Shown here piece after piece: positions 23,751 to 62,141 of a stretch of 64,000 bases of DNA. A program made the position numbers and the translations under genes. Under the pieces are notes generated by a model. That model worked only from the letters and a program-made list of their open reading frames with translations, was not told the origin of the DNA and ran no database searches. Source of the DNA: Patescibacteria group bacterium (GTDB taxonomy: Bacteria; Patescibacteriota; Patescibacteriia; 2-01-FULL-39-33); contig JBAZKF010000001.1 of assembly GCA_041650895.1 (NCBI GenBank), positions 359,156-423,155 on the forward strand. Reading direction: 5' to 3'. How positions within the stretch are numbered: the first letter of the stretch is position 1; each line of letters opens with the position of its first letter.

Positions 23751-24845
23751 CCCCTCCAATAATTCCTTTGTCTGTTGCGCGCATTTATCCCAAGTAAACT
23801 CTCGGGATTTTTGTTTTCCTTTTTCTGCCAACTGCTGTCGAAAATTTTCGACAGTAATTACTTTTTTAATCGCTAAACATATCTCTTCTTCTTTTAAGGG
23901 GTTCACATAGAGCACCGCTTCTCCGCCAATCTCCGGCAAAGAACCGGCGTCGGAAGTTATAACCGGCAAGCCACAAGCCATCGCCTCTGCCACCGGCAAG
24001 CCGAATCCCTCATACAAACTCGGAAAAACAAACACCTCAGCGTGGCTTAATAATTCATGTTTTCTTTCTGGCGTAACATAGCCCAGATACTTTATCGCTT
24101 CTTCCTGCAATTCAGCGTTAGCTTGTCTTAATCCTCTGAATATCTCTTCATTCTTCCAGCCGTTTTTACCGGCCAGAATTAATTTTAAGTCACGCGCCAC
24201 CGGCTCTTCCTGCTTAAGTTTTTTAAACGCCCCGATCAATCGCGTCAGGTTTTTCCGCGGTTCAATAGTACCCAGATACAAAATATATTTCTCTTTGCCT
24301 TTTTGATAAGTCGCTTCTCTGTCGGCCACGCCCTCATAGATCACCTCAATCTTTTCTGGCGCAATGCCAAATAGCTTAATAATATCTCGTTTAGTACTGT
24401 TAGAAACGGCGATAATCTTATCTGCTTGTTTTAAGGATTGCGGTACCAAATAACGCCGATCAAAATTGATCAACCGATCCAGAAATAACTCCGGATAAAG
24501 ATAAACTGCCAAATCATGAATTGTTACCACGGCTTGGCCGCGATAGCCCAAGGGAATAATATTGGCGGGAAACAGGCAGACATCAAGCTTTTGCCGGTTG
24601 ATTAACTTACCAACTATCAACTGGGAATAAAAAAACGGCAAATAACGACGATAACGCGACAACGGAAAACGCTTTATTTCATAATCGCCTGCCACTATTT
24701 CCGGAGGCAGTTTTTCATCTTCATTCAAAAACAAGACATAATGATTATGCTTGTCCTGAATCAATAGATTTTTAACCAACTGCCTGCCGTACTCGCCGAT
24801 TCCCGCCGAGGCAACCAGAGTCCGGCAATCAATCCCGATTCTCAT
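23730..24845 (-). CDS. Glycosyltransferase family 1 (GT4-like)
   Basis: C-terminal motif EGFGLPVAEAMACGLPVITS. Confidence 0.8.
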   Translation of the reverse strand: MRIGIDCRTLVASAGIGEYGRQLVKNLLIQDKHNHYVLFLNEDEKLPPEIVAGDYEIKRFPLSRYRRYLPFFYSQLIVGKLINRQKLDVCLFPANIIPLGYRGQAVVTIHDLAVYLYPELFLDRLINFDRRYLVPQSLKQADKIIAVSNSTKRDIIKLFGIAPEKIEVIYEGVADREATYQKGKEKYILYLGTIEPRKNLTRLIGAFKKLKQEEPVARDLKLILAGKNGWKNEEIFRGLRQANAELQEEAIKYLGYVTPERKHELLSHAEVFVFPSLYEGFGLPVAEAMACGLPVITSDAGSLPEIGGEAVLYVNPLKEEEICLAIKKVITVENFRQQLAEKGKQKSREFTWDKCAQQTKELLEGLQQVKR

Positions 24846-24846
24846 A

Positions 24847-26103
24847 TTATTTGATTAAGCGTCGCAGTTTATCGGCATTTAAGCCCGGCCCGATCAAAGC
24901 TAGATTGACGCGTTTAAAATCAAAAATATCCTTGGCCACCCGTTGCACTTCTTTGGCCGATACTGCAAAAATCTTTTTTAATTTCTGCTCCGGCGTCATT
25001 AACGGCTTATTCATTAATTCCTGATTGACATAAAACTGCGCAATAGACATGGAATCCTCCAAATCCAAAGCGGTCTTTCCGGCAACGAATTCTTTGGCTC
25101 GATTCAATTCCTCAGCAGTCACGCCGCCAGCCAGGATACTTTTAATTTCTAAAATAATCGCCTCTAAAGCCAACTCCAACCGCGCCTTGTCCAAGCCTGC
25201 CTGAATCACTAATAACCCGGTATCCTCATACAGATTCGGCCAGGAACGGATAAAGTAAGCTAGGCCCTTTTGTTCCCGTATGTTAATGAATAAACGCGAA
25301 CTCATATTGCCACCGAGAATAATCGCTAGAAGATTCAAGGCGGGAACGCGTTTATCATGAGTGGACCAAGCAGGAAAACCCAAAGCCAACTGTACTTGTT
25401 CTGTCGCCTTATCCTTGATTTTTATCCTCGGCTTTTGTTGTTTAATTATTGATCGTTTAATGGCTGACTTTTTTCCGCCGGGCAAAGAGAATTTAGCCGA
25501 GATTTCCTTGATCTGCTTATCGCTGAATTTTCCAGCCAAACCGATAACGACATTGGCGCCGTTATAATAATTACGTTTGTAGGCCAAAAGTTTTTTTCTG
25601 TCCAGTCCCCTGACTGTTTTCTTACTGCCGGCAATCAGATGACCCAGCTGCCCGCCGTCAAAGACTAATTCCTCCAACATCTCCTCCACATGCATCAAGG
25701 GATTATCCTCATACATATTGATCTCTTCCACAATCACACCCTTCTCTTTTTCCAACTCAACGGCATCAAATTTAGAATTAATAACCATGTCCGACAGCAT
25801 ATCAATAGCCAGTGGCAAGTGCCGAGCATCGGATTTGATATAATAACCGGTCATATCCTTGCCGGTAAAAGCGTTGTATTCCGCACCAATGCCGTCCAGC
25901 TCCTTGGACAAATCCAAGGTCGTCGGACGCCGATCCGTCCCCTTAAACATCATATGTTCAATAAAATGAGAAACACCTCTAAGCTGTGGCGTTTCCTGGC
26001 GGCTACCCACCTTAAACAGCACCAGCAAGCTGGCAGTCTGAGTATCATGAAGCGGCGCCGTAATCAATCTGATGCCGTTTTTCAGGGTTTGCTTTTTATA
26101 CAT
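24847..26103 (-). CDS. M16-family zinc peptidase (insulinase/pitrilysin-like)
   Basis: HxxEH motif (HFIEHMMFKGT); 418 aa. Confidence 0.8.
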   Translation of the reverse strand: MYKKQTLKNGIRLITAPLHDTQTASLLVLFKVGSRQETPQLRGVSHFIEHMMFKGTDRRPTTLDLSKELDGIGAEYNAFTGKDMTGYYIKSDARHLPLAIDMLSDMVINSKFDAVELEKEKGVIVEEINMYEDNPLMHVEEMLEELVFDGGQLGHLIAGSKKTVRGLDRKKLLAYKRNYYNGANVVIGLAGKFSDKQIKEISAKFSLPGGKKSAIKRSIIKQQKPRIKIKDKATEQVQLALGFPAWSTHDKRVPALNLLAIILGGNMSSRLFINIREQKGLAYFIRSWPNLYEDTGLLVIQAGLDKARLELALEAIILEIKSILAGGVTAEELNRAKEFVAGKTALDLEDSMSIAQFYVNQELMNKPLMTPEQKLKKIFAVSAKEVQRVAKDIFDFKRVNLALIGPGLNADKLRRLIK

Positions 26104-26156
26104 AAACTTATTTTTGCTAAATTTACAAAGTATTTTAATATTTTCGCTATTTTCCT

Positions 26157-26185
26157 ATTGACAAATAATATGGATATGCTATAAT
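26157..26185 (+). promoter_or_regulatory. Strong sigma70 promoter TTGACA-16nt-TATAAT, orphan (points into the 3' end of the convergent NYN gene)
   Basis: Sequence ttgacaaataatatggatatgctataat; there is no plus-strand CDS downstream. Confidence 0.5.
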
Positions 26186-26191
26186 TACGAT

Positions 26192-26252
26192 AGAATCACG
26201 ACGAGAGAGGTTCTCTAAGGGTTTCGTCCCGACGAGAGCCTTTTTCATTTGT
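26192..26252 (+). ncRNA. Candidate small RNA (about 60 nt) driven by the orphan promoter, with nested stem-loops and a 3' T-run
   Basis: acgatagaatcacGACGAgagaggttctctaagggttTCGTCccgacgagagcctttttc: imperfect hairpins followed by TTTTT. Confidence 0.3.
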
Positions 26253-26781
26253 GTTTATTTTTATACTCCAACTTACCCTTCAAAGCATTTAAAAAAATCA
26301 AAATATTATTTGCCGAGGAACTTAAGCGATCCAAAAGACAAGAATAATTATTTTGATTCGGAATTAACACTCTCTTGAGTTTTGAGTTATTAATTAGATA
26401 TTCTACCAAACAATAAAAATCACCATCACCGGAAACAATAATGGCCTTATCATAATTAGAATATTCAATCATGGCGTGCAATACCAATTCGGCATCTACG
26501 TTACCCTTAACTGTGCCATCAGCTAATTCCAGTGTCGGTTTAAATACGCAAATATAGCCATACTCCTGTAATTTTGTATACATCGCTTGATTACCGGGTT
26601 TAAAGCCGATGAATAGGAAGGCCTTTTCAATGCCATATTTATCTTTAAGATAAATCCTGAATCTTCTATAATCAAGCTGCCAGCCGGAATAAATCTTCCG
26701 GTCTTTTTTATAAATGTCTTTTGACAAGCTTTGATATAAATTATTGCTGTCAATAAAAGCGTAGTTTTTTCCTTGTGGCAT
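26245..26781 (-). CDS. NYN-domain (LabA/DUF88, PIN-like) putative RNase, immediately downstream of the DGR RT on the same strand
   Basis: NYN hallmarks YAFIDSNNLY…, KAIIVSGDGDF; 178 aa. Confidence 0.65.
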   Translation of the reverse strand: MPQGKNYAFIDSNNLYQSLSKDIYKKDRKIYSGWQLDYRRFRIYLKDKYGIEKAFLFIGFKPGNQAMYTKLQEYGYICVFKPTLELADGTVKGNVDAELVLHAMIEYSNYDKAIIVSGDGDFYCLVEYLINNSKLKRVLIPNQNNYSCLLDRLSSSANNILIFLNALKGKLEYKNKHK

Positions 26782-26801
26782 ATTATTTTATATAGATAAT
26801 C

Positions 26802-27788
26802 TTAGCAAGTATAAGCCAAATTAGCAATTTTTCGTTGTAATTTATAGCTCTGGCCGTGACTCAATAAACCCAAATATGAATTCATGGTTTCCGGGTTATG
26901 ATTTTTCCTCACTCGCCTGAACATCCTTCTTTTACTCGCCGTCCGAAACACCCGATGATCAAAAAAATTCACCCAACCCAGAAAGTCTAAGCCGGGACTT
27001 AAAGTTTTGATAAATAGCTTATCGGGATGAAGCGTCAGTTTCATTTTATCTCTCAAATAAGCATCAACCGATGGAATTATTTTTTCCAAATAATTTTTAT
27101 CATCAGCCATAATCACGAAGTCATCGGCATAGCGGATATAATATTTTACTTTCAGTTTATGCTTAACAAATTGATCAAATCTGTTCATATAAATATTAAC
27201 CAATAACTGCGAAGTTAAATTCCCCAACGGCAAACCTCCGTTAAAACTGTCAATCGCCTCGTCTAATAAACCCAAAATCTTTTTATCCGGAATATACTCG
27301 GCCAGGATATTTTCCAATATCCCATGATCGATATTGGCAAAAAATTTCCTGATGTCACCCTTTAAAATCCAACAAGTGTGGGTGTTATTCTGGCTGGCTT
27401 TGTAAGCAAATTTCTTGAATCTGGCCAAGGCCTTATGCGTGCCCTTGCCCAGCCGGCAGGAATAAGAATCGACGATGAAAGTCCGGTCAAAAAACGGATA
27501 CAAAATCCGATAAATCGCATGATGAACCAACCTATCACTGACCGACGCCTTATGGATTTGCCGCGACTTGGGATCGCAGATCTTAAAGGCCTGGTAGCCG
27601 CCATGGCGATAAGCGCCGGTTGCCAAATCCCGATGCAATGCGATAAGATTATCCATAAGGCGCAATTGGAATTCCTGCACGTCTTTTCTATTCCTTTTGC
27701 CCCTGACAAACTCCTGCCAAGCCAACAATAAATTATCAAGACAGATAATCTCTTCAAAAGTATGGCTCAACTTGATTTTCCCGTTCAT
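26802..27788 (-). CDS. Diversity-generating retroelement (DGR) reverse transcriptase
   Basis: RT domains with a YADD catalytic box (YIRYADDFVIM) and motif 4 LPLGNLTSQLLVNIYM (the DGR-specific xGxxxSQ, not the QGxxSP of group II/retron RTs). 328 aa, no maturase or endonuclease domain. Adjacent TR/VR pairs are present. Confidence 0.9.
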   Translation of the reverse strand: MNGKIKLSHTFEEIICLDNLLLAWQEFVRGKRNRKDVQEFQLRLMDNLIALHRDLATGAYRHGGYQAFKICDPKSRQIHKASVSDRLVHHAIYRILYPFFDRTFIVDSYSCRLGKGTHKALARFKKFAYKASQNNTHTCWILKGDIRKFFANIDHGILENILAEYIPDKKILGLLDEAIDSFNGGLPLGNLTSQLLVNIYMNRFDQFVKHKLKVKYYIRYADDFVIMADDKNYLEKIIPSVDAYLRDKMKLTLHPDKLFIKTLSPGLDFLGWVNFFDHRVFRTASKRRMFRRVRKNHNPETMNSYLGLLSHGQSYKLQRKIANLAYTC

Positions 27789-27815
27789 AATGATTCCTTT
27801 AATTTACCCCCCCCC

Positions 27816-27825
27816 CAACGGAAAA
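27816..27825. repeat. C10 homopolymeric tract between the divergent RT and avd1 genes
   Basis: cccccccccc in an AT-rich intergenic/5' region; a candidate slipped-strand phase-variation site. Confidence 0.6.
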
Positions 27826-27834
27826 TTTATCCCG

Positions 27835-28140
27835 TTGATTCAAAAAACCAAAACGCTATACATAGTATGGCATGGTTACTACCAATCTCTACCCAAAACC
27901 CATAAATACTCATTGGGTCAAAAAATCGACATCTTCTTTATTGAGGCGATTGAAGCTATGGCTACCGCCAGTTTCCTGCCACCACAAGCCAAACCGCCTC
28001 ATATCTGCCTAGCAATTCAAAAAATTGATTTGATAAAAATCATGCTAATGATTCTATGGGAGATAAAGGCGATTGATAATAATAAGTATTTAAATCTATC
28101 GCAACCACTAGACGAAATCGGCCGGATGCTAGGCGGCTAG
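27835..28140 (+). CDS. Avd-like four-helix-bundle (23S rRNA IVS protein family) accessory protein, copy 1 (start uncertain; no in-frame ATG until 27958)
   Basis: The C-terminus …LWEIKAIDNNKYLNLSQPLDEIGRMLGG matches the Avd/four-helix-bundle family C-terminal helix (…EIGkmLggW). It is paralogous to copy 2 with synonymous third-position differences in this frame. It is on the strand opposite to the RT and TR. Confidence 0.45.
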   Translation: MIQKTKTLYIVWHGYYQSLPKTHKYSLGQKIDIFFIEAIEAMATASFLPPQAKPPHICLAIQKIDLIKIMLMILWEIKAIDNNKYLNLSQPLDEIGRMLGG

Positions 28141-28149
28141 TACAACAAA

Positions 28150-28185
28150 CTGACAAAACAAAACTCCCCGGATAAACTCAGGGAG
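28150..28185 (-). terminator. Hairpin CTCCC-N12-GGGGAG plus T-run immediately 3' of TR1 (minus sense): DGR RNA 3' structure or terminator
   Basis: Minus-sense sequence …cgcaac tctctttatttttCTCCCtgagtttatccGGGGAGttttgtttt. The same element follows TR2. Confidence 0.5.
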
Positions 28186-28199
28186 AAAAATAAAGAGAG

Positions 28200-28320
28200 T
28201 TGCGGAGCGCAGCCGGATTATCGACGTTGAAGTCGTTATCAAGCCAGTTGTAGTTCCAGTTCCATCTGTCGCCATTCCAGTACAGGTAACGCACATACAG
28301 GTTGTCGTCCGAGTTGCGAT
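28200..28320 (-). repeat. DGR template repeat TR1 (cognate to VR1 at 28702-28822)
   Basis: 121-nt match to VR1. All 20 mismatches fall on TR adenines in the minus sense (TR AAC, GAC, TAC, AAT or AGA codons against G, D, C, R or F codons in the VR). Minus-sense TR1 encodes …RNSDDNLYVRYLYWNGDRWNWNYNWLDNDFNVDNPAALRN. Confidence 0.9.
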
Positions 28321-28576
28321 TTTCGCAAAATTCCGCCTAAACCACCATCCGTTGATCCGCCGACTGGCGGAATCTCCAGATTGAATCTTATGCGTGAGCT
28401 AAACTCACATAGAACATTGCGCCAAGTATCTTTACTTTAATTAGGCATTAATATATTACGCTACTACTGACATTGATCAGTAATATTCTGAATAATACTA
28501 ACACCGGCTGAGGTAGCGGATAGCCGTAACCAACCGCGGATTTACCTGTGGCTATTTACATAATAGCAGAATAATT

Positions 28577-28619
28577 TGAAAAAATAAATCCTGCACAAGT
28601 CAGATGACCGATGCAGGAT
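28577..28619 (-). terminator. Intrinsic terminator of target gene 1 (hairpin atcctgca…tgcaggat plus T-run on the minus strand)
   Basis: An 8-bp perfect stem followed by TTATTTTTT in the minus sense. Confidence 0.6.
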
Positions 28620-28697
28620 ATTTTGTACAAAATTTAGGGCTAAGGACTAAAGTTTAAAATTTCAAGAACTGAAAATCAAAATTCTAAGTCCAAAGGA

Positions 28698-29255
28698 CTA
28701 CTTGCGGAGCGCAGCCGGATCACCGACGCCGAAGCCGCCATCAAGCCAGCCGTAGCCCCAGTCCCATCCGCCGCCACCCCAGCACAGGTAACGCACAAAC
28801 AGGCGGTCGTCCGAGTCGCGATAAATAGTCCCCCAAAAGAAAATACATTTGCCTTTCCATTCTTCCGGAATCAACTCGAGATGTGCGAGTAAATAGTCAA
28901 GAACATTAGCGTTCAAGACCAGCTTGCCGGCCAACAACTTACGCAAAGCGTGACCTTTGACGATGTTATTCTTCTGGTCATTGGCCAGATAAAGCTCAAT
29001 CAATGCCGGATTCCACTCCAGTTGACCGCCCTTCTGGTGTTCTTCAACTTTCCAGCCGGACGGAACGAAAGGATGAACGTCGCAGTCAATAATGTACTTG
29101 GTCACGATGATTTCCGCCAAGCCATGCAGCACTTTCTTGAATTCCGCCAAACTCTTAAACTGCTGGAGCTTCGTCATCTCCTCCGGCGTATAACCAGCAG
29201 CTTCAAAAGCATCCATTACCTTGTTGGCTTGGCCTACCGAGTAAAGCGTGGACAT
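28698..29255 (-). CDS. DGR target (variable) protein 1; C-terminal VR at 28702-28822
   Basis: Probable start MSTLYSVGQ… with RBS AGGAGA; the track ORF extends to 29285 via GTG. The C-terminus …FVRYLCWGGGGWDWGYGWLDGGFGVGDPAALRK differs from the TR1-encoded peptide only at Asn/adenine-containing codons. It is paralogous to target 2 (shared core …VLDYL…IPEEWK…FFWGTI…). Confidence 0.85.
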   Translation of the reverse strand: MSTLYSVGQANKVMDAFEAAGYTPEEMTKLQQFKSLAEFKKVLHGLAEIIVTKYIIDCDVHPFVPSGWKVEEHQKGGQLEWNPALIELYLANDQKNNIVKGHALRKLLAGKLVLNANVLDYLLAHLELIPEEWKGKCIFFWGTIYRDSDDRLFVRYLCWGGGGWDWGYGWLDGGFGVGDPAALRK

Positions 29256-29338
29256 AGTCCATCTCCTTTTTGCGGACACGTTCACTTTGGAACCCGTCCA
29301 GTTTGAGGTGCGAATTGGCCTTGCATACAGAGCAATTC

Positions 29339-29367
29339 CAATATATTAAGTATAGCACGTATTATAT
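29339..29367 (-). promoter_or_regulatory. Promoter of target gene 1: TTGACA-17-TATACT (minus strand), with a TTTATCCAC motif just upstream
   Basis: Reverse complement reads TTGACAaaatatataatacgtgcTATACT. Confidence 0.5.
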
Positions 29368-29455
29368 ATTTTGTCAATAGATTTATCCACTCTACCAACT
29401 AACTAATTATTTTTATCTAAATTTAAACAAAAAATCACCACTATCTATTGGGATA

Positions 29456-29701
29456 ATGGAAGCAATTGCCACGGCCAGTTTCCTGGACAAACTGAGTAAG
29501 TCGCCGTATGTGGAAACAGCGATCAGAAAAACTGATATTTTAAAAATATTATTATTACTTTTGTGGGAGACAAAATCATTAGATAATAATAAATATTTGG
29601 CCTTATCAATTAAGATTGATGAGGTGGGCAAAATGCTTGGCGGCTGGAAAGGACAATTACTAAGTAAAAACTCCCCCGACAATAAAGCGGGAGAGAAATG
29701 A
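29456..29701 (+). CDS. Avd-like four-helix-bundle accessory protein, copy 2 (81 aa)
   Basis: MEAIATASFL…LWETKSLDNNKYLALSIKIDEVGKMLGGW…; resembles the BPP-1 Avd C-terminus (…EVGRILGSW…). A 40-nt upstream element (aaatttaaacaaaaaatcacc…ttgggataATG) is shared with a truncated third copy at 31508-31556. Confidence 0.5.
   Translation: MEAIATASFLDKLSKSPYVETAIRKTDILKILLLLLWETKSLDNNKYLALSIKIDEVGKMLGGWKGQLLSKNSPDNKAGEK
29663..29695 (-). terminator. Hairpin CTCTCCCGC-N-GGGGGAG plus T-run immediately 3' of TR2 (minus sense), homologous to the element after TR1
   Basis: Minus-sense sequence …gcaactcacttcatttCTCTCCCgctttattgtcGGGGGAGttttta. Confidence 0.5.
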
Positions 29702-29707
29702 AGTGAG

Positions 29708-29829
29708 TTGCGAGAACCGCAGCCGGATTATCGACGTTGAAGTCGTTATCAAGCCAGTTATAGTTCTCATTCCACTGGCTGTCGTTCCAATACAAGTAAC
29801 GGACGTAGAGGTTGCCATCAGAGTTGCGG
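29708..29829 (-). repeat. DGR template repeat TR2 (cognate to VR2 at 30184-30305)
   Basis: 122 nt, with no indels against VR2. The minus-sense sequence encodes RNSDGNLYVRYLYWNDSQWNENYNWLDNDFNVDNPAAVLA against the VR2 peptide RRSDGRLYVRCLFWSGSQWRGCYSWLDSGFVGGSPAAVLA. Most mismatches fall at TR adenines, and four non-adenine mismatches cluster at the 3' end (IMH/IMH*-like). Confidence 0.85.
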
Positions 29830-30065
29830 TTGTATGTGGCGCGCCGCCGATATCACTGCCCGTCGAATACTCTCTGGGCTGGATCTTATTTGTGATCTTA
29901 AATCACTTAGCGCTCCGCACCAAGTATCTTCATTTTTGAAGTTTCTACAGGCGCCACACTGCCTGAAGCCTTGACCGCAGGCATTCTCGGCGACTGGACA
30001 CTGGATTCGGTGGCAAGCAGCCATAACCGCTTGCTGATATTCACCTAATACCTTTTTTATTTTAG

Positions 30066-30101
30066 CATAAAAAATAATCCCGAACCATTGCTGATTCGGG
30101 A
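30066..30101 (-). terminator. Intrinsic terminator of target gene 2 (ttcccgaa…ttcggga plus T-run)
   Basis: A 7-bp stem followed by TTATTTTTT in the minus sense. Confidence 0.6.
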
Positions 30102-30169
30102 ATATGTTCAAAAAAATTGCATTAAGGTCAAATTTCCCAAGGATCCATATAGATCCAGGAAATCAAGAC

Positions 30170-30847
30170 CTAAGCGCTGATACTTGCGAGAACCGCAGCG
30201 GGGCTGCCGCCGACGAAGCCGCTATCAAGCCAGCTATAGCACCCACGCCACTGGCTGCCGCTCCAAAACAAGCAACGGACGTAGAGGCGGCCATCAGAGC
30301 GGCGGAAAATTGTGCCCCAGAAAAAGATAAAGATAATATTTCCTTTTTCATTTTTTTCCTTCCACTCTTCGGGGATGTACTCCTGATTGGCCCTAAGAAA
30401 GTCCAGAACGCTTGCCGACAACACCGGCCGGCCGTCAAGTTCTTTACGTAGTTCATGGCCGACAATAAATCGACCGTTAACCTGGAGCGTTGAGCGATAC
30501 AAAACGACTTTCTGTCCGTCAATGTATAAACCGTCAAATCTCTTTTCAATTGAAATCTTGCCCTGGCGGGCATGTTTCTCAACTGTTGCGTCAGTAAATG
30601 GCGGTCGCGGATCATTGTCCGTATCAATTACCGCCCGAAGGATCGGCGTTGTCTGGCGCAGAAATTCCTCGCCGATTTCCTTGAGTTTCTCAACAAAAAA
30701 ACTCTTGCCCGGACCAGTCGCCCAATCAATCACTTCGGCGCCGACCTTGATTTTCTTCAGAGTTGCGGCTATCAGCGAGAATAGATTGGCGAGCGCCGCC
30801 ACAAACTGCCCGACTTCCTTCCAATTCAAACTCTTTTTCGTCGACAT
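30170..30847 (-). CDS. DGR target (variable) protein 2; C-terminal VR at 30184-30305
   Basis: 225 aa; paralogous to target 1, and its C-terminus matches the TR2 product apart from differences at Asn codons. Confidence 0.85.
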   Translation of the reverse strand: MSTKKSLNWKEVGQFVAALANLFSLIAATLKKIKVGAEVIDWATGPGKSFFVEKLKEIGEEFLRQTTPILRAVIDTDNDPRPPFTDATVEKHARQGKISIEKRFDGLYIDGQKVVLYRSTLQVNGRFIVGHELRKELDGRPVLSASVLDFLRANQEYIPEEWKEKNEKGNIIFIFFWGTIFRRSDGRLYVRCLFWSGSQWRGCYSWLDSGFVGGSPAAVLASISA

Positions 30848-30974
30848 CTTTCACGTCCTTTCTATCTCCCCCATTACTGGCTCCTGGCCAACTCCGGATT
30901 GATATATTGAACTTCATGCAACAATTGGCTCTGCCGGAATGACAGCTTGCCAATATACTATTTTGTATCATACA

Positions 30975-31003
30975 TCAATAATTTTGTCAAGGGGTTTATC
31001 CAC
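30975..31003 (-). promoter_or_regulatory. Promoter of target gene 2 (TTGACA -35 box; weaker -10), with a TTTATCCACTCC motif upstream as for target 1
   Basis: Reverse complement reads …gtggataaaccccTTGACAaaattattgatgtatgaTACAAA. Confidence 0.4.
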
Positions 31004-31098
31004 TCCACTGAACTTTTTATCCGTGATTCAATGATTAATAGCCTATAATTACCAAAAAACAATAAAAAAGCCATCCGTCAACGGGTGGCTAAAGAACC

Positions 31099-31431
31099 TT
31101 ATTTACTCTGCAGACATGGTAACGCCGAAAGCCATTTATCAAATTTCCTATAAATCCGCCCCAAAAACCTGTTCCATTTTTTCTCACCATAAAAATCTAT
31201 GTACCTTTGCCTAAATTCAAGAAAAGACACTCTGGGAGCTAACCGTGGAACTCCAATCATCGCCTTGATCCTATTGGGATATTCTTTGATAAATCTCCTG
31301 GGGAATCGTTGGTGAATAAAAGCAATCGTATACGGGTCATCATCATGATTGCCCAATAACGGAACCACGAGCCTTTCATAAAGATCTTGACCATGCAACC
31401 CAATAAATTCAGACTTACTCATTACGTCCAT
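31099..31431 (-). CDS. Hypothetical 110-aa protein with its own TTGACA-17-TATGCT promoter and GGAGG RBS
   Basis: Has an ORF, an RBS and a promoter at 31450-31480 (reverse complement). The ORF shows no similarity to the DGR targets. Confidence 0.45.
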   Translation of the reverse strand: MDVMSKSEFIGLHGQDLYERLVVPLLGNHDDDPYTIAFIHQRFPRRFIKEYPNRIKAMIGVPRLAPRVSFLEFRQRYIDFYGEKKWNRFLGRIYRKFDKWLSALPCLQSK

Positions 31432-31580
31432 GACGCCCTCCTTTGTTTTTATTGTTTCTTAGAAAGCATAGACGACTTTAGAAAAAATGTCAATAATTTT
31501 GTTACTATTCAAATTTAAACAAAAAATCACCGCTATCTTTTGGGATAATGATGATTTTTAGTCAATCTCTGATTTTATAA

Positions 31581-32981
31581 TTATTTTAATCTCTTTTTCA
31601 CCCATTCCTTCAATTCTTCCGTCTTAACCTTATCCTGCTTCATAGTGTCGCGATTGCGGACAGTCACCTCGCCTTTTTCCAAGGTGTCAAAATCAACGGT
31701 AACGCAAAACGGCGTACCCACCTCATCTTGCCGGCGATAGCGTTTGCCCACATTGCCGTTATCATCAAATTCACATTTAAATTCACTGCGCAGATCGTCA
31801 AATATCTCCCGCGCCTTAGCCACTAGTTCCGGCTTGTTTTTCAGTAACGGGAAAACCGCGACCTTAACCGGGGCGATTTTGACTGGGAACTTCAATACCA
31901 CTCGGGAATCGCCTTCGTCCAAGTCCTCTTCAGTATAAGCGGCTGACAAAGCCACCAGCACCGAACGATCCAAACCAAAAGTTGGCTCTAGGACATGAGG
32001 CAGATATTTTTTGCCGGCTTGCTGATCAAAATAACTCAAGTCCGTGCCGGAAAATTTCTGATGCTGACTCAAATCAAAATCCCCGCGATGCGCCAAGCCG
32101 AACAATTCGGCAAAACCAAAGGGAAAATTATACTCAATATCCACAGTCTTACGGGAATAATGCGACAATTTTTCTTTCGGATGCTCATAATGCTTCAAGT
32201 CTTCTTTTTTAGCTCCCAATTCCAGGGCAAATTCTTCTTGCGCCTTCAGCCAATCCTTAAACAACGATTTCCACTCGGCATCCGGTGAAATAAAATATTC
32301 TATCTCCATTTGCTCGAATTCACGCACGCGAAAAATAAAATTACGCGCCACGATCTCATTGCGAAACGCCTTGCCGATCTGCCCGATGCCAAACGGCACC
32401 TTCACCCGACAAGAATCAACCACATTCTTAAAATCGGAAAAGATCGCGCCGGCCGTTTCCGGTCGCAAGTAAACCGGCTCATCAATGCCATTCATTTCCG
32501 TCTTAAACATCATATTGAAAAACCGGGCCTCAGTCCAATTCTTCTTGCCACAATTAGGGCAACTAATCTTTTCTTGAATAACTTTACTCATTTCATCCAA
32601 TTTTCCCTCTAAGTCTTCCCCCAAGACCTCACTGATCAAATTATCAGCCCGATAACGCATTTTGCAATTCTTACAGTCAACCATCGCATCATTAAAACCG
32701 CTCAAATGACCGGAAGCCTCCCATAACTTAGGATGCAACATGATTGGGCCGTCAATTCCCACCATATCCTCACGCTCGGTAACGAACATCTTCCACCATA
32801 AGGCCTTAATGTTATTCTTGAGTTCTACGCCATACGGGCCATAGGAGTAAGCATTGGCAAAGCCACCATAAATCTCACAGGCCGGAAAAACAAAGCCTTT
32901 CCGCTTGCATAAAGCCACAATTTTCTCCATCTTGTCATTCTGTTGCTGTTTATTAGCCATAAAAATAAAGTTATTTAACAA
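31581..32981 (-). CDS. glyQS: Glycine--tRNA ligase (class II, dimeric GlyQS type)
   Basis: …GFVFPACEIYGGFANAYSYGPYGVELKNNIK… and class II motifs; 466 aa (the start may be a later Met). Confidence 0.85.
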   Translation of the reverse strand: MLNNFIFMANKQQQNDKMEKIVALCKRKGFVFPACEIYGGFANAYSYGPYGVELKNNIKALWWKMFVTEREDMVGIDGPIMLHPKLWEASGHLSGFNDAMVDCKNCKMRYRADNLISEVLGEDLEGKLDEMSKVIQEKISCPNCGKKNWTEARFFNMMFKTEMNGIDEPVYLRPETAGAIFSDFKNVVDSCRVKVPFGIGQIGKAFRNEIVARNFIFRVREFEQMEIEYFISPDAEWKSLFKDWLKAQEEFALELGAKKEDLKHYEHPKEKLSHYSRKTVDIEYNFPFGFAELFGLAHRGDFDLSQHQKFSGTDLSYFDQQAGKKYLPHVLEPTFGLDRSVLVALSAAYTEEDLDEGDSRVVLKFPVKIAPVKVAVFPLLKNKPELVAKAREIFDDLRSEFKCEFDDNGNVGKRYRRQDEVGTPFCVTVDFDTLEKGEVTVRNRDTMKQDKVKTEELKEWVKKRLK

Positions 32982-33011
32982 GGTAAATCTTAACTAAAAT
33001 CGCCGGTTTAG

Positions 33012-61165: not shown

Positions 61166-61403
61166 ATACTTGGTTAAATTGCTTACTTATATATTATAGC
61201 ATAAAAAACAACAAGGTAAAAAGACGGCGGAGTAACAAATAATAGATAGAAGATAAAAAAACATAATTAAAAAAATAAAAAGAAGGGGCTATCCACGATA
61301 TTACTGCGGACAACCCCTTGGGATGTAGCGACCGCCTACGGCGGAAAGTGCAAGGATCAAATGACAAGGAGTCAAAAAATCCAATGGTTCAAGCGTTCAA
61401 AGC

Positions 61404-62141
61404 TCAAATTACTGCGAGAGAAGCCCGGAAGCCGAACCGTAGAGGTCGTGGGCAAGGACCCAGAGCGTGTCGAACCAGACCCCGGCCGCCGTCGAACCCG
61501 AAGCAGAAGCACGGAGACTCCGAGAAGTCGCCATCGGCAACGAGAGCATATTCGTCGCCGGGGCAATCAATGTGGAGTTGTTCGCATTGAACGAGCCGTT
61601 CGGGATGAGCGATGAGCATACAGCCCACGATGAATGACCCGAGGCCGAACTCGCCGGGGGCATACACGACTCGCACGCGCCGAACCGAACGTCCGCGGTG
61701 GCTGAAACCGAATTGCGCCGGGATGAGTAGGAAATCGCCCTTCTGCTTTTCGCCGAGCATCTGGAGAGCGACCGCCGTCCGTTCCGTAAGCCGCAAATAC
61801 TTCTCGTCGAGCTTGCCCTTGCGGAAGTTGTAAAGCGTCCGCGTTTTGCCGATGATGTCTATCACTCGTTCAACGGCGTCGTTGTAGTCCTTGCCGACCT
61901 TCTCAAACTTCGGTACGGCGAACCATCTCTCTGCTCCTGATGGCAGGATCGGCAATTCCTTGGAACTGTTCAATGCCGAGCTAGCATCAAGGTTGGGGAG
62001 ATGCCTGGATAACGCCACGAGCTGTTCGGCTATCGGCTTCACGGCATATCCTTGCGGATAACCGTAATTGGATTGCACTTCCTCGTTGGCGTAAAACGGG
62101 CAGGCAGCGGCCATGGCCGGTGCTGCAACGTGAGTCGTCAT
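61404..62141 (-). CDS. Hypothetical protein with anomalous GC (about 58%), likely horizontally acquired
   Basis: 245 aa. A consensus promoter TTGACA-17-TATACT lies at 62308-62336 (reverse complement); a GTTATCCACAG motif at 62412-62422 lies upstream. Confidence 0.5.
   Translation of the reverse strand: MTTHVAAPAMAAACPFYANEEVQSNYGYPQGYAVKPIAEQLVALSRHLPNLDASSALNSSKELPILPSGAERWFAVPKFEKVGKDYNDAVERVIDIIGKTRTLYNFRKGKLDEKYLRLTERTAVALQMLGEKQKGDFLLIPAQFGFSHRGRSVRRVRVVYAPGEFGLGSFIVGCMLIAHPERLVQCEQLHIDCPGDEYALVADGDFSESPCFCFGFDGGRGLVRHALGPCPRPLRFGFRASLAVI

Follow-up and report, generated by a model that had tools for sequence, protein, structure and literature searches.

The 64,000-nucleotide stretch analyzed here (termed the window) covers positions 359,156 to 423,155 of contig JBAZKF010000001.1, from a Patescibacteria metagenome-assembled genome (MAG; assembly GCA_041650895.1), and it harbors a diversity-generating retroelement (DGR) with two target genes. 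We found that each target gene is followed, directly behind its variable repeat (VR), by a composite element of roughly 60 nucleotides (nt), made of short T-linked units and able to fold into one long imperfect hairpin. We are highly confident that this element exists at this position, that it is conserved, with covariation of its pairs, and that it is specific to the 3' ends of DGR targets. By analogy with characterized DGRs, we propose that it may be this lineage's counterpart of the hairpin found at DGR target sites, a cis element that would act in retrohoming; this functional reading is tentative, with close to an even chance of being correct.

The system in the window is a DGR, with a reverse transcriptase (RT), adenine-specific pairs of template repeat (TR) and VR, VRs located at the 3' ends of the targets, and Avd. 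All mismatches between TR1 and VR1 fall at TR adenines (21/21), as do 20/24 of those between TR2 and VR2, and the adenine content is 26% in the TRs versus 9-10% in the VRs. VR1 and VR2 form the 3' ends of two paralogous genes, both annotated as hypothetical proteins. The features of the two cassettes are as follows.

28635-28699, minus strand: element 1, an imperfect hairpin of about 65 nt composed of T-linked 7-8-nt units, directly behind VR1 and starting from the second stop-codon base.
28687-28699, minus strand: hairpin 1, AGTCC-TTT-GGACT, with 5 base pairs (bp) and a 3-nt loop; two of its bases are common to the stop TAG (28700..28698).
28660-28674, minus strand: apex hairpin of element 1, TTTCA-GTTCT-TGAAA, matching the "zone 2" hairpin enriched in orthologues.
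28644-28648, minus strand: distal AGTCC, the partner of GGACT (28691..28687) in the long hairpin.
30125-30171, minus strand: element 2, a 47-nt, 19-bp imperfect hairpin; the covariance-model match spans 30117-30177.
30141-30156, minus strand: hairpin 2, GGATC-TATATG-GATCC, the apex of element 2 (stop TAG at 30172..30170).
28698-29255, minus strand: target gene 1 (185 amino acids [aa], WC473_01885), with VR1 at 28700-28821 and the stop TAG at 28698-28700.
30170-30847, minus strand: target gene 2 (225 aa, WC473_01895), with VR2 at 30184-30305 and the stop TAG at 30170-30172.
28198-28319, minus strand: TR1, without the element after its 3' end.
29708-29829, minus strand: TR2, also without the element after its 3' end.
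26802-27788, minus strand: DGR reverse transcriptase (RVT_1 match, E 1e-22).
About 27790-28140, plus strand, opposite to targets, TRs, and RT: Avd (bAvd-like).
29456-29701, plus strand: truncated second copy of Avd.
28588-28619, minus strand: intrinsic terminator of target 1, ATCCTGCA...TGCAGGAT then TTATTTTTT.
30078-30101, minus strand: intrinsic terminator of target 2, TCCCGAATCA-GCAA-TGGTTCGGGA then TTATTTTTT, kept in the orthologous locus L087.

We then looked into the regions downstream of related targets, in 80 genome loci of the target family and in contigs of the closest relatives. This family counts over 1,100 homologues; wherever a source name or title bears a lineage, it points to Patescibacteria or the candidate phyla radiation (CPR), but most homologues lack a lineage name, and the titles of many MAGs refer to other taxa. 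On the coding strand, the 60 nt that follow the stop contain a CTT(T/A/G)G core at intervals of 7-8 nt, with autocorrelation peaks at 7-8, 14-15, and 21-22 nt. These units are extremely strand biased (CTTTG, 104 occurrences versus 1 for CAAAG; CTTGG, 65 versus 1), and the 60 nt are rich in T and poor in A (T 0.39, A 0.18), compared to 302 control 3' flanks from the same DNA (A 0.30, T 0.31). Targets have 3.28 units per 60 nt, the control flanks 0.18, and at least three units were found behind 48/69 targets versus 1/302 controls. Evaluation of 543 kb revealed 22 arrays with at least five CTT[TAG]G per 60 nt, 21 of which lie right after a target stop. As a family, the element measures 50-65 nt (about 60 nt) and consists of five or six helices of 2-6 bp joined by T-rich linkers, and it extends from the second base of the stop codon to just before the gene's own intrinsic terminator.

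Hairpins of at least 5 bp occur in 21/78 loci between positions -6 and +12 from the stop and again in 21/78 loci between +13 and +32, whereas shuffles gave about 7±2.4; no enrichment of such hairpins was seen in the zone from +33 to +52 of the 78 loci. Individual flanks fold into one long hairpin, not into separate mini-hairpins, with symmetric T-rich internal loops between helices of 2-6 bp and an apex about 25-30 nt after the stop. In this long hairpin, each unit's C and G form pairs with the G and C of the unit across from it, and the Ts lie opposite one another, which is how CTTTG comes to be present in the same sense on both arms. Fixed 68-nt windows gave a mean z of -1.9 (31/69 with z<-2, 17 with z<-3). 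Fold strength does not correlate with the number of units, 9/37 unit-rich flanks having z>-1, and folding is about as good for the sense strand as for the antisense strand (-16.7 versus -15.7 kcal/mol). A call between DNA and RNA based on wobble pairs gave no verdict, as the numbers of G:T (166) and A:C (99) are those expected from base composition.

RNAalifold found no consensus structure in a plain MAFFT alignment of 24 hairpins because the repeated units shift register, and a named structure and covariance models were used in its place. On the same plain alignment of the 24 clear cases, the named structure had 72% of its cells paired, compared to 64.9±0.9 in shuffles, and 40 double-sided changes, compared to 16.8±3.4, the cases having been selected for folding. 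Given this selection, a covariance model (R1) was built from the 24 cases and all loci were searched with it, unselected. In the resulting 80 aligned matches, an alignment fitted to the model, 67.9% of cells are paired versus 60.5±0.6 in shuffles and 23-53% when partners are slid by 1-3 columns, and there are 164 double-sided changes versus 75±8.

R1 was run against 638 kb on both strands and yielded 80 matches with E<=1. All 66 matches with E<0.01 are located at target stops and on the target strand; none at this threshold follows a TR or lies elsewhere in the 638 kb. The match starts at the second stop-codon base in 32/66 loci and within about 10 nt of it in most others, and the element begins 0-12 nt after the end of the TR/VR homology. 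Element 1 scores 56.9 bits with R1. A leave-out model (R2), built only from the matches of loci L001-L080 and without any sequence from the window, retrieved 28635-28699 (47.1 bits, E 1e-11) and 30117-30177 (25.3 bits, E 5e-5) as the only significant matches in the 64-kb window; a third, weak match covers 61359-61413 (14.7 bits, E 0.09). Two unrelated metagenome contigs contain intergenic T-rich tandem repeats of 7-10 nt, such as ggtatttggagcttgg and ctttgtgcttaac (L091, 943-1120, plus strand; L151, 432-595, minus strand). These repeats reach up to 27.7 bits with R2, and weak model scores are thus not specific. In unrelated metagenome DNA carrying the core 14-mer (458 kb), no score exceeded 22 bits, and scans of metagenome and viral contigs for the exact 14-mer (AGTCCTTTGGACTT) returned only chance matches, none with a full element. 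A two-block pattern scan of viral contigs gave no match, neither element matched Rfam 15 at E<=1, nor did those of eight orthologous loci, and the element is lacking in the single locus examined of a phage DGR with a 36%-identical RT (L331).

The initial annotation had singled out two short palindromes directly after the stop codons, likened them to the hairpin or cruciform of DGR targets, and placed them in the equivalent position of both cassettes. Both palindromes are present on the minus strand exactly as it wrote them. However, taken by itself, hairpin 1 does not exceed chance: the window has 4.9 perfect hairpins of 5 bp or more per kb, the chance of finding one in a 12-nt zone is ∼0.057, 6/49 of the long open reading frames (ORFs) of the window have one at the stop, and folds of 61-66 nt around hairpin 1 reach z values of only -1.3 to -1.95. 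Hairpin 2, on the other hand, was understated. It is the tip of the 47-nt, 19-bp imperfect hairpin that starts from the A of the stop codon, with folding energies of -10.5 (DNA) and -22.5 (RNA) kcal/mol and a z of -5.5 (0/200 shuffles as good). A conserved structure does stand behind both targets, but the two hairpins are not equivalent parts of it, as hairpin 1 corresponds to segments 1 and 2 (both at the base of the 5' arm) of the family element and hairpin 2 to its apex. The putative functional unit is a composite element of roughly 60 nt in place of the 13-nt mini-hairpin. The check proposed at the time, conservation in homologous CPR DGR targets, shows the element kept at the same place.

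The two cassettes differ in how firmly they fold. In cassette 1, where helices do not exceed 5 bp and the GC content is 31%, GGACT has two possible partners, either the preceding AGTCC or the second AGTCC 45 nt downstream (28648..28644). The local pairing is the minimum free energy (MFE) structure for DNA; the distal one is the DNA centroid and the RNA MFE structure, element 1 folding as RNA into the nested long hairpin (-12.4 kcal/mol, z -1.75). Covariation is weak for the local pairing of segment 1 with segment 2 (74.4% of cells paired versus 71.7±1.2, 19 double-sided changes versus 13.6±3.1) and favors the distal GGACT/AGTCC pairing, of segment 2 with segment 3 (81.9% versus 75.0±0.9, 26 changes versus 9.1±2.5). 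Cassette 2 has helices of 5, 8, and 6 bp broken by loops, with 41% GC, and forms a strong hairpin yet contains a single strict CTT[TAG]G unit. The apical loops are GTTCT in cassette 1 and TATA(TG) in cassette 2. Target 1 has its nearest orthologue in L081-83 (79% aa identity), with six differences in the flank; in L081, a 5'-arm change of AA to GG is compensated by T to C in the 3' arm, and one A·C mismatch becomes G:C. The orthologue of target 2 (74% identical; L087/L088) keeps the long hairpin, with A:T-to-G:C and G:T-to-G:C changes, and its ORF runs into the 5' arm of the hairpin.

The element appears to be linked to the DGR more than to the gene family. The median score is 40.6 bits for targets with an adjacent TR and 23 bits for those without. 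Nine members of the family lack any match; none of them has an adjacent TR, and seven have a divergent 3' end without the GCAAG initiation of mutagenic homing (IMH) sequence. The element is also strong behind some targets that have no TR within 4 kb (L050, 61.8 bits; L019, 54.5 bits), which argues that it travels with the VR. At a Buchananbacteria contig (L086) syntenic with positions 24800-33000 of the window, we observed GlyRS, a gene similar to target 2, a 184-aa gene, and a peptidase M16, arranged in the order seen in the window. No TR, Avd, RT, or NYN gene lies between them, and the flank of the target 2 orthologue is a T-rich remnant of 15-16 bits. This suggests that the DGR core was gained or lost at this site.

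A second, unrelated target family provides an additional comparison. Its representative in the window and the flank behind it are located here.

61404-62141, minus strand: third DGR-target-like gene, from the second unrelated family; its true stop is TAA at 61409-61411.
61345-61411, minus strand: degenerate third copy of the element type, a unit-array flank behind the frameshifted target.

The family of this gene comprises 252 homologues of about 285 aa. The frameshift lies inside an A-poor (8% A) VR-like end, and no cognate TR was found in the window; the gene is an orphan target in decay or else reflects an error of assembly. We considered the ORF at 61404-62141 as a third VR of TR1 or TR2 and rejected it; it is frameshifted and from a different target family. 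The orthologues L333 and L334 show the same target, TR, antisense Avd, and RT layout. Their stops are followed by T-linked units and a long imperfect hairpin (-20.7 kcal/mol in L333), and R2 matches exactly there, weakly. The element is absent from L335, a relative from this family without a nearby DGR. These second-family comparisons draw on few loci.

From VR to TR, the sequence forms a conserved module of 316-457 nt. It comprises the end of the IMH (..GCAAGT) and the stop, ∼60 nt of A-poor and T-rich sequence, an intrinsic terminator, a promoter-like box, a conserved leader of ∼230 nt, and the TR, after which come CTCTCTTCATTTCTCTCCC-loop-GGGAGAG-TTTTG and the antisense Avd. The 3' flanks of the TRs show no homology to that of the VRs beyond a shared T-richness and have instead a different conserved sequence, CTCTCTTCATTTCTCTCCC, and a terminator. 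In 37 loci, and at 28164-28185 and 29671-29695 (minus strand) of the window, this flank reads CTCTCTTCATTTCTCTCCC-loop-GGGAGAG-TTTTGTTTT, a terminator-like hairpin. With such a hairpin after each TR, the TR RNA, at ∼400 nt with leader, TR, and terminator, seems to be transcribed on its own and not together with the RT. The leader, immediately 5' of each TR (28320-28555 and 29830-30065, minus strand), is a conserved structured RNA also found in 26 orthologous loci, and it starts after the promoter-like box that follows the target's terminator. RNAalifold predicts 53 pairs in it, 42 of them with compensatory changes, and a 12-bp long-range helix that closes just before the TR. A comparison with Rfam 15 assigned the leader to no family at the gathering score, the only hit being a partial RT-7 match (26-28 versus 116.8 bits). 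The leader may be the domain of the DGR RNA that recruits RT and Avd, placed 5' of the TR, unlike its 3' position in Bordetella phage BPP-1. Guide-like pairing of the element (either strand) with the leader, TR, or tail of the DGR RNA was tried and rejected (mean z about 0, no consistent position).

Several neighboring features recur. Avd and the TR are convergent, and Avd lies back to back with the start of the RT, an arrangement kept in L081, L082, L085, L089, L333, and L334, and the antisense Avd layout is thus common to the two target families. In cassette 2, a separate TR and a truncated Avd occur without an RT, so that one RT apparently serves two TRs. A gene with an NYN domain (26245-26781, minus strand) lies directly downstream of the RT, and NYN also adjoins the RT in L084 and L085; it may be a recurrent neighbor of this DGR type. 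The genome of L009, titled Gammaproteobacteria but with CPR-type genes, has a c-di-GMP-II riboswitch ∼2 kb from the DGR (L009 6658-6777, plus strand; 60.2 bits, above the Rfam gathering score).

What could such an element do? As defined by Guo et al. (PMC3240598), the known DGR hairpin combines a 7-10-bp GC-rich stem with a 4-nt GRNA loop (sense strand) and is found 4-34 bp beyond the VR; the canonical type extrudes as a hairpin or cruciform in supercoiled DNA. In BPP-1 it is needed for efficient homing; the structure of its stem matters, not the sequence, while both loop size and loop sequence are critical and a change of GAAA to CTTT abolishes activity (PMC3240598). This hairpin is absent after the TR (PMC3240598, PMC5758913), and myDGR applies the stem and GRNA-loop rule of Guo et al. 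(PMC6602519). We propose, by analogy, that the CPR element would mark the recipient VR as distinct from the donor TR, which lacks it, and would make cDNA integration at the VR 3' end more efficient, as a foldable landmark adjoining the IMH on the target side. As the T linkers are specific to the coding strand, the recognized form is more likely a single-stranded fold of this strand than a symmetric cruciform. With a mismatch every 5 bp, extrusion of a cruciform would also be costly.

Several observations weigh against a hairpin acting in retrohoming. The element does not fit the known definition, having neither a 7-10-bp GC-rich stem nor a GRNA loop, and T-rich loops inactivate the BPP-1 target. 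Its folding is uneven: 26/69 flanks fold no better than shuffles (z>-1), the element of cassette 1 is thermodynamically weak, only about 68% of the model pairs are formed, and flanks exist that are unit rich but fold poorly, so pairing may not be the primary constraint. Since the alignment of the 80 matches was fitted to the model, it favors the structure; we argue that the pairing signal is real from the slid controls and from the MAFFT result. The R2 score of cassette 2 (25.3 bits) is borderline, unrelated T-rich tandem repeats reaching 27.7 bits, and the case for this cassette therefore rests mainly on its position, fold strength, and orthologue. Finally, the element is transcribed in the 3' untranslated region (UTR) of the target, and a role at the RNA level is equally compatible with its position there.

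Such a role would be that of a U-rich 3'-UTR hairpin controlling translation termination, mRNA stability, or processing, with no part in retrohoming, which we regard as rather unlikely. The element does lie between the stop and the intrinsic terminator and is hence transcribed, its fold is better with RNA parameters, which allow G:U (the long hairpin of cassette 1 is the RNA but not the DNA MFE structure), and its T (U) linkers are strand specific, as seen from the CTTTG and CAAAG counts. Yet sense and antisense fold about equally, the excess of G:T over A:C is what base composition predicts, no other gene in the 543 kb has the element, it follows two unrelated families of targets of the same DGR type, and the TR, itself transcribed too, is not followed by it. 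Another explanation, distinctly less probable, gives the main role to the 7-8-nt units themselves (G-N-N-C-T-T-T-G), as binding sites for a protein on single-stranded DNA or RNA, the palindrome being secondary. Candidate binders are Avd/RT or a cold-shock-domain protein (preference GTCTTTG/T), and the consensus of Bacillus CspB, 5'-GTCTTTG/T-3', resembles the unit (PMC1904285), although this is a sequence resemblance only. The extreme strand bias, the 7-8-nt periodicity, the unpaired columns, which are 59% T, and the unit-rich flanks that do not fold (the 9/37 with z>-1) all agree with an array of binding sites, whereas the covariation suggests that pairing is selected, and cassette 2 makes its strong hairpin with one strict unit.

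It is very unlikely that the functional DGR hairpin is instead the downstream intrinsic terminator, with its GC-rich stem of 8-10 bp and, in cassette 2, a GCAA loop, and that the T-linked element is a spacer with some other function or none. Terminator-like hairpins are indeed present behind 55/69 targets, but their median start is +64 nt from the stop (range, 5-109), mostly outside the 4-34-bp interval, a GRNA loop occurs in only 1/69, and the conservation, covariation, and fixed register of the intervening 60 nt would be left unexplained. That the palindromes are chance occurrences without function, the null proposed by the initial annotation, is scarcely credible; hairpin 1 alone is within chance, but the same position across 66 divergent loci, the covariation, and the match to the leave-out model speak against it, and the orthologues contradict it. 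The retrohoming counterpart stays our preferred, tentative reading. A more specific version, which we consider unlikely as a whole, is that the 3' boundary of the VR in this large CPR DGR lineage would be marked, in place of a GC-rich cruciform, by the strand-specific T-linked array, folded into a mismatched hairpin on the single-stranded coding strand and read by Avd/RT or by a host single-strand-binding protein. If true, the array would represent a second, mechanistically distinct mode of DGR target recognition and, together with a self-contained TR transcript and its roughly 230-nt structured leader, a minimal portable target tag.

CPR are reported to be rich in DGRs (PMC6602519, PMC5758913), and a myDGR-type rule (GC-rich stem and GRNA loop, PMC6602519) would report no hairpin for the lineage of the element. 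That this lineage has, at the same position, a conserved element of another build suggests a need for some foldable landmark by the IMH, as opposed to one specific hairpin. The element is short, has clear limits (stop and terminator), and comes in many natural variants, and it would define cis requirements for retargeting such a DGR.

Compared to known systems, the initial annotation of a DGR target hairpin was right in that there is a real DGR and a conserved structure that immediately follows the VR/IMH in both targets and does not follow any TR, but the structure is not the canonical hairpin: its position after the VR matches that of characterized DGR hairpins, and its stem and loop differ from theirs. 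A stem of at least 6 bp with a GRNA loop was found within 150 nt in only 1/69 loci, where it is the terminator. The CPR element resembles the BPP-1 hairpin in lying immediately 3' of the VR, at the stop codon, in being an inverted repeat that follows the VR and is absent after the TR, apparently in a stem sequence that varies while pairing is partly kept, and in having strand-specific unpaired sequence. The BPP-1 hairpin is, however, a single stem of about 20-24 nt, whereas the CPR element has ∼60 nt, five to six short helices, T-rich internal and apical loops, and a moderate GC content; in the BPP-1 target, a CTTT loop or the loss of 2 bp of the stem is crippling, whereas T-rich loops and linkers are the rule in the CPR element. 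The hairpins of nanoarchaeal DGRs (PMC4372165) offer a parallel for a lineage-specific departure from the GRNA rule in ultrasmall uncultivated organisms, with a hairpin that overlaps the end of the target, but they are single, have GRA triloops, and lie inside the coding sequence, unlike the composite CPR element with its T-rich loops and linkers. Intrinsic terminators, which are the targets of group IIC introns, are likewise stem-loops at gene 3' ends and possible landmarks for a retroelement (PMC3240598); the CPR element differs from them in having no T-run after it and a separate canonical terminator downstream. Lastly, the site of Bs-CspB, 5'-GTCTTTG/T-3' (PMC1904285), shares with it a pyrimidine-rich unit and a CTTTG core on one strand, a likeness of sequence only, and in contrast to the Bs-CspB sites the CPR units are also base-paired with each other.

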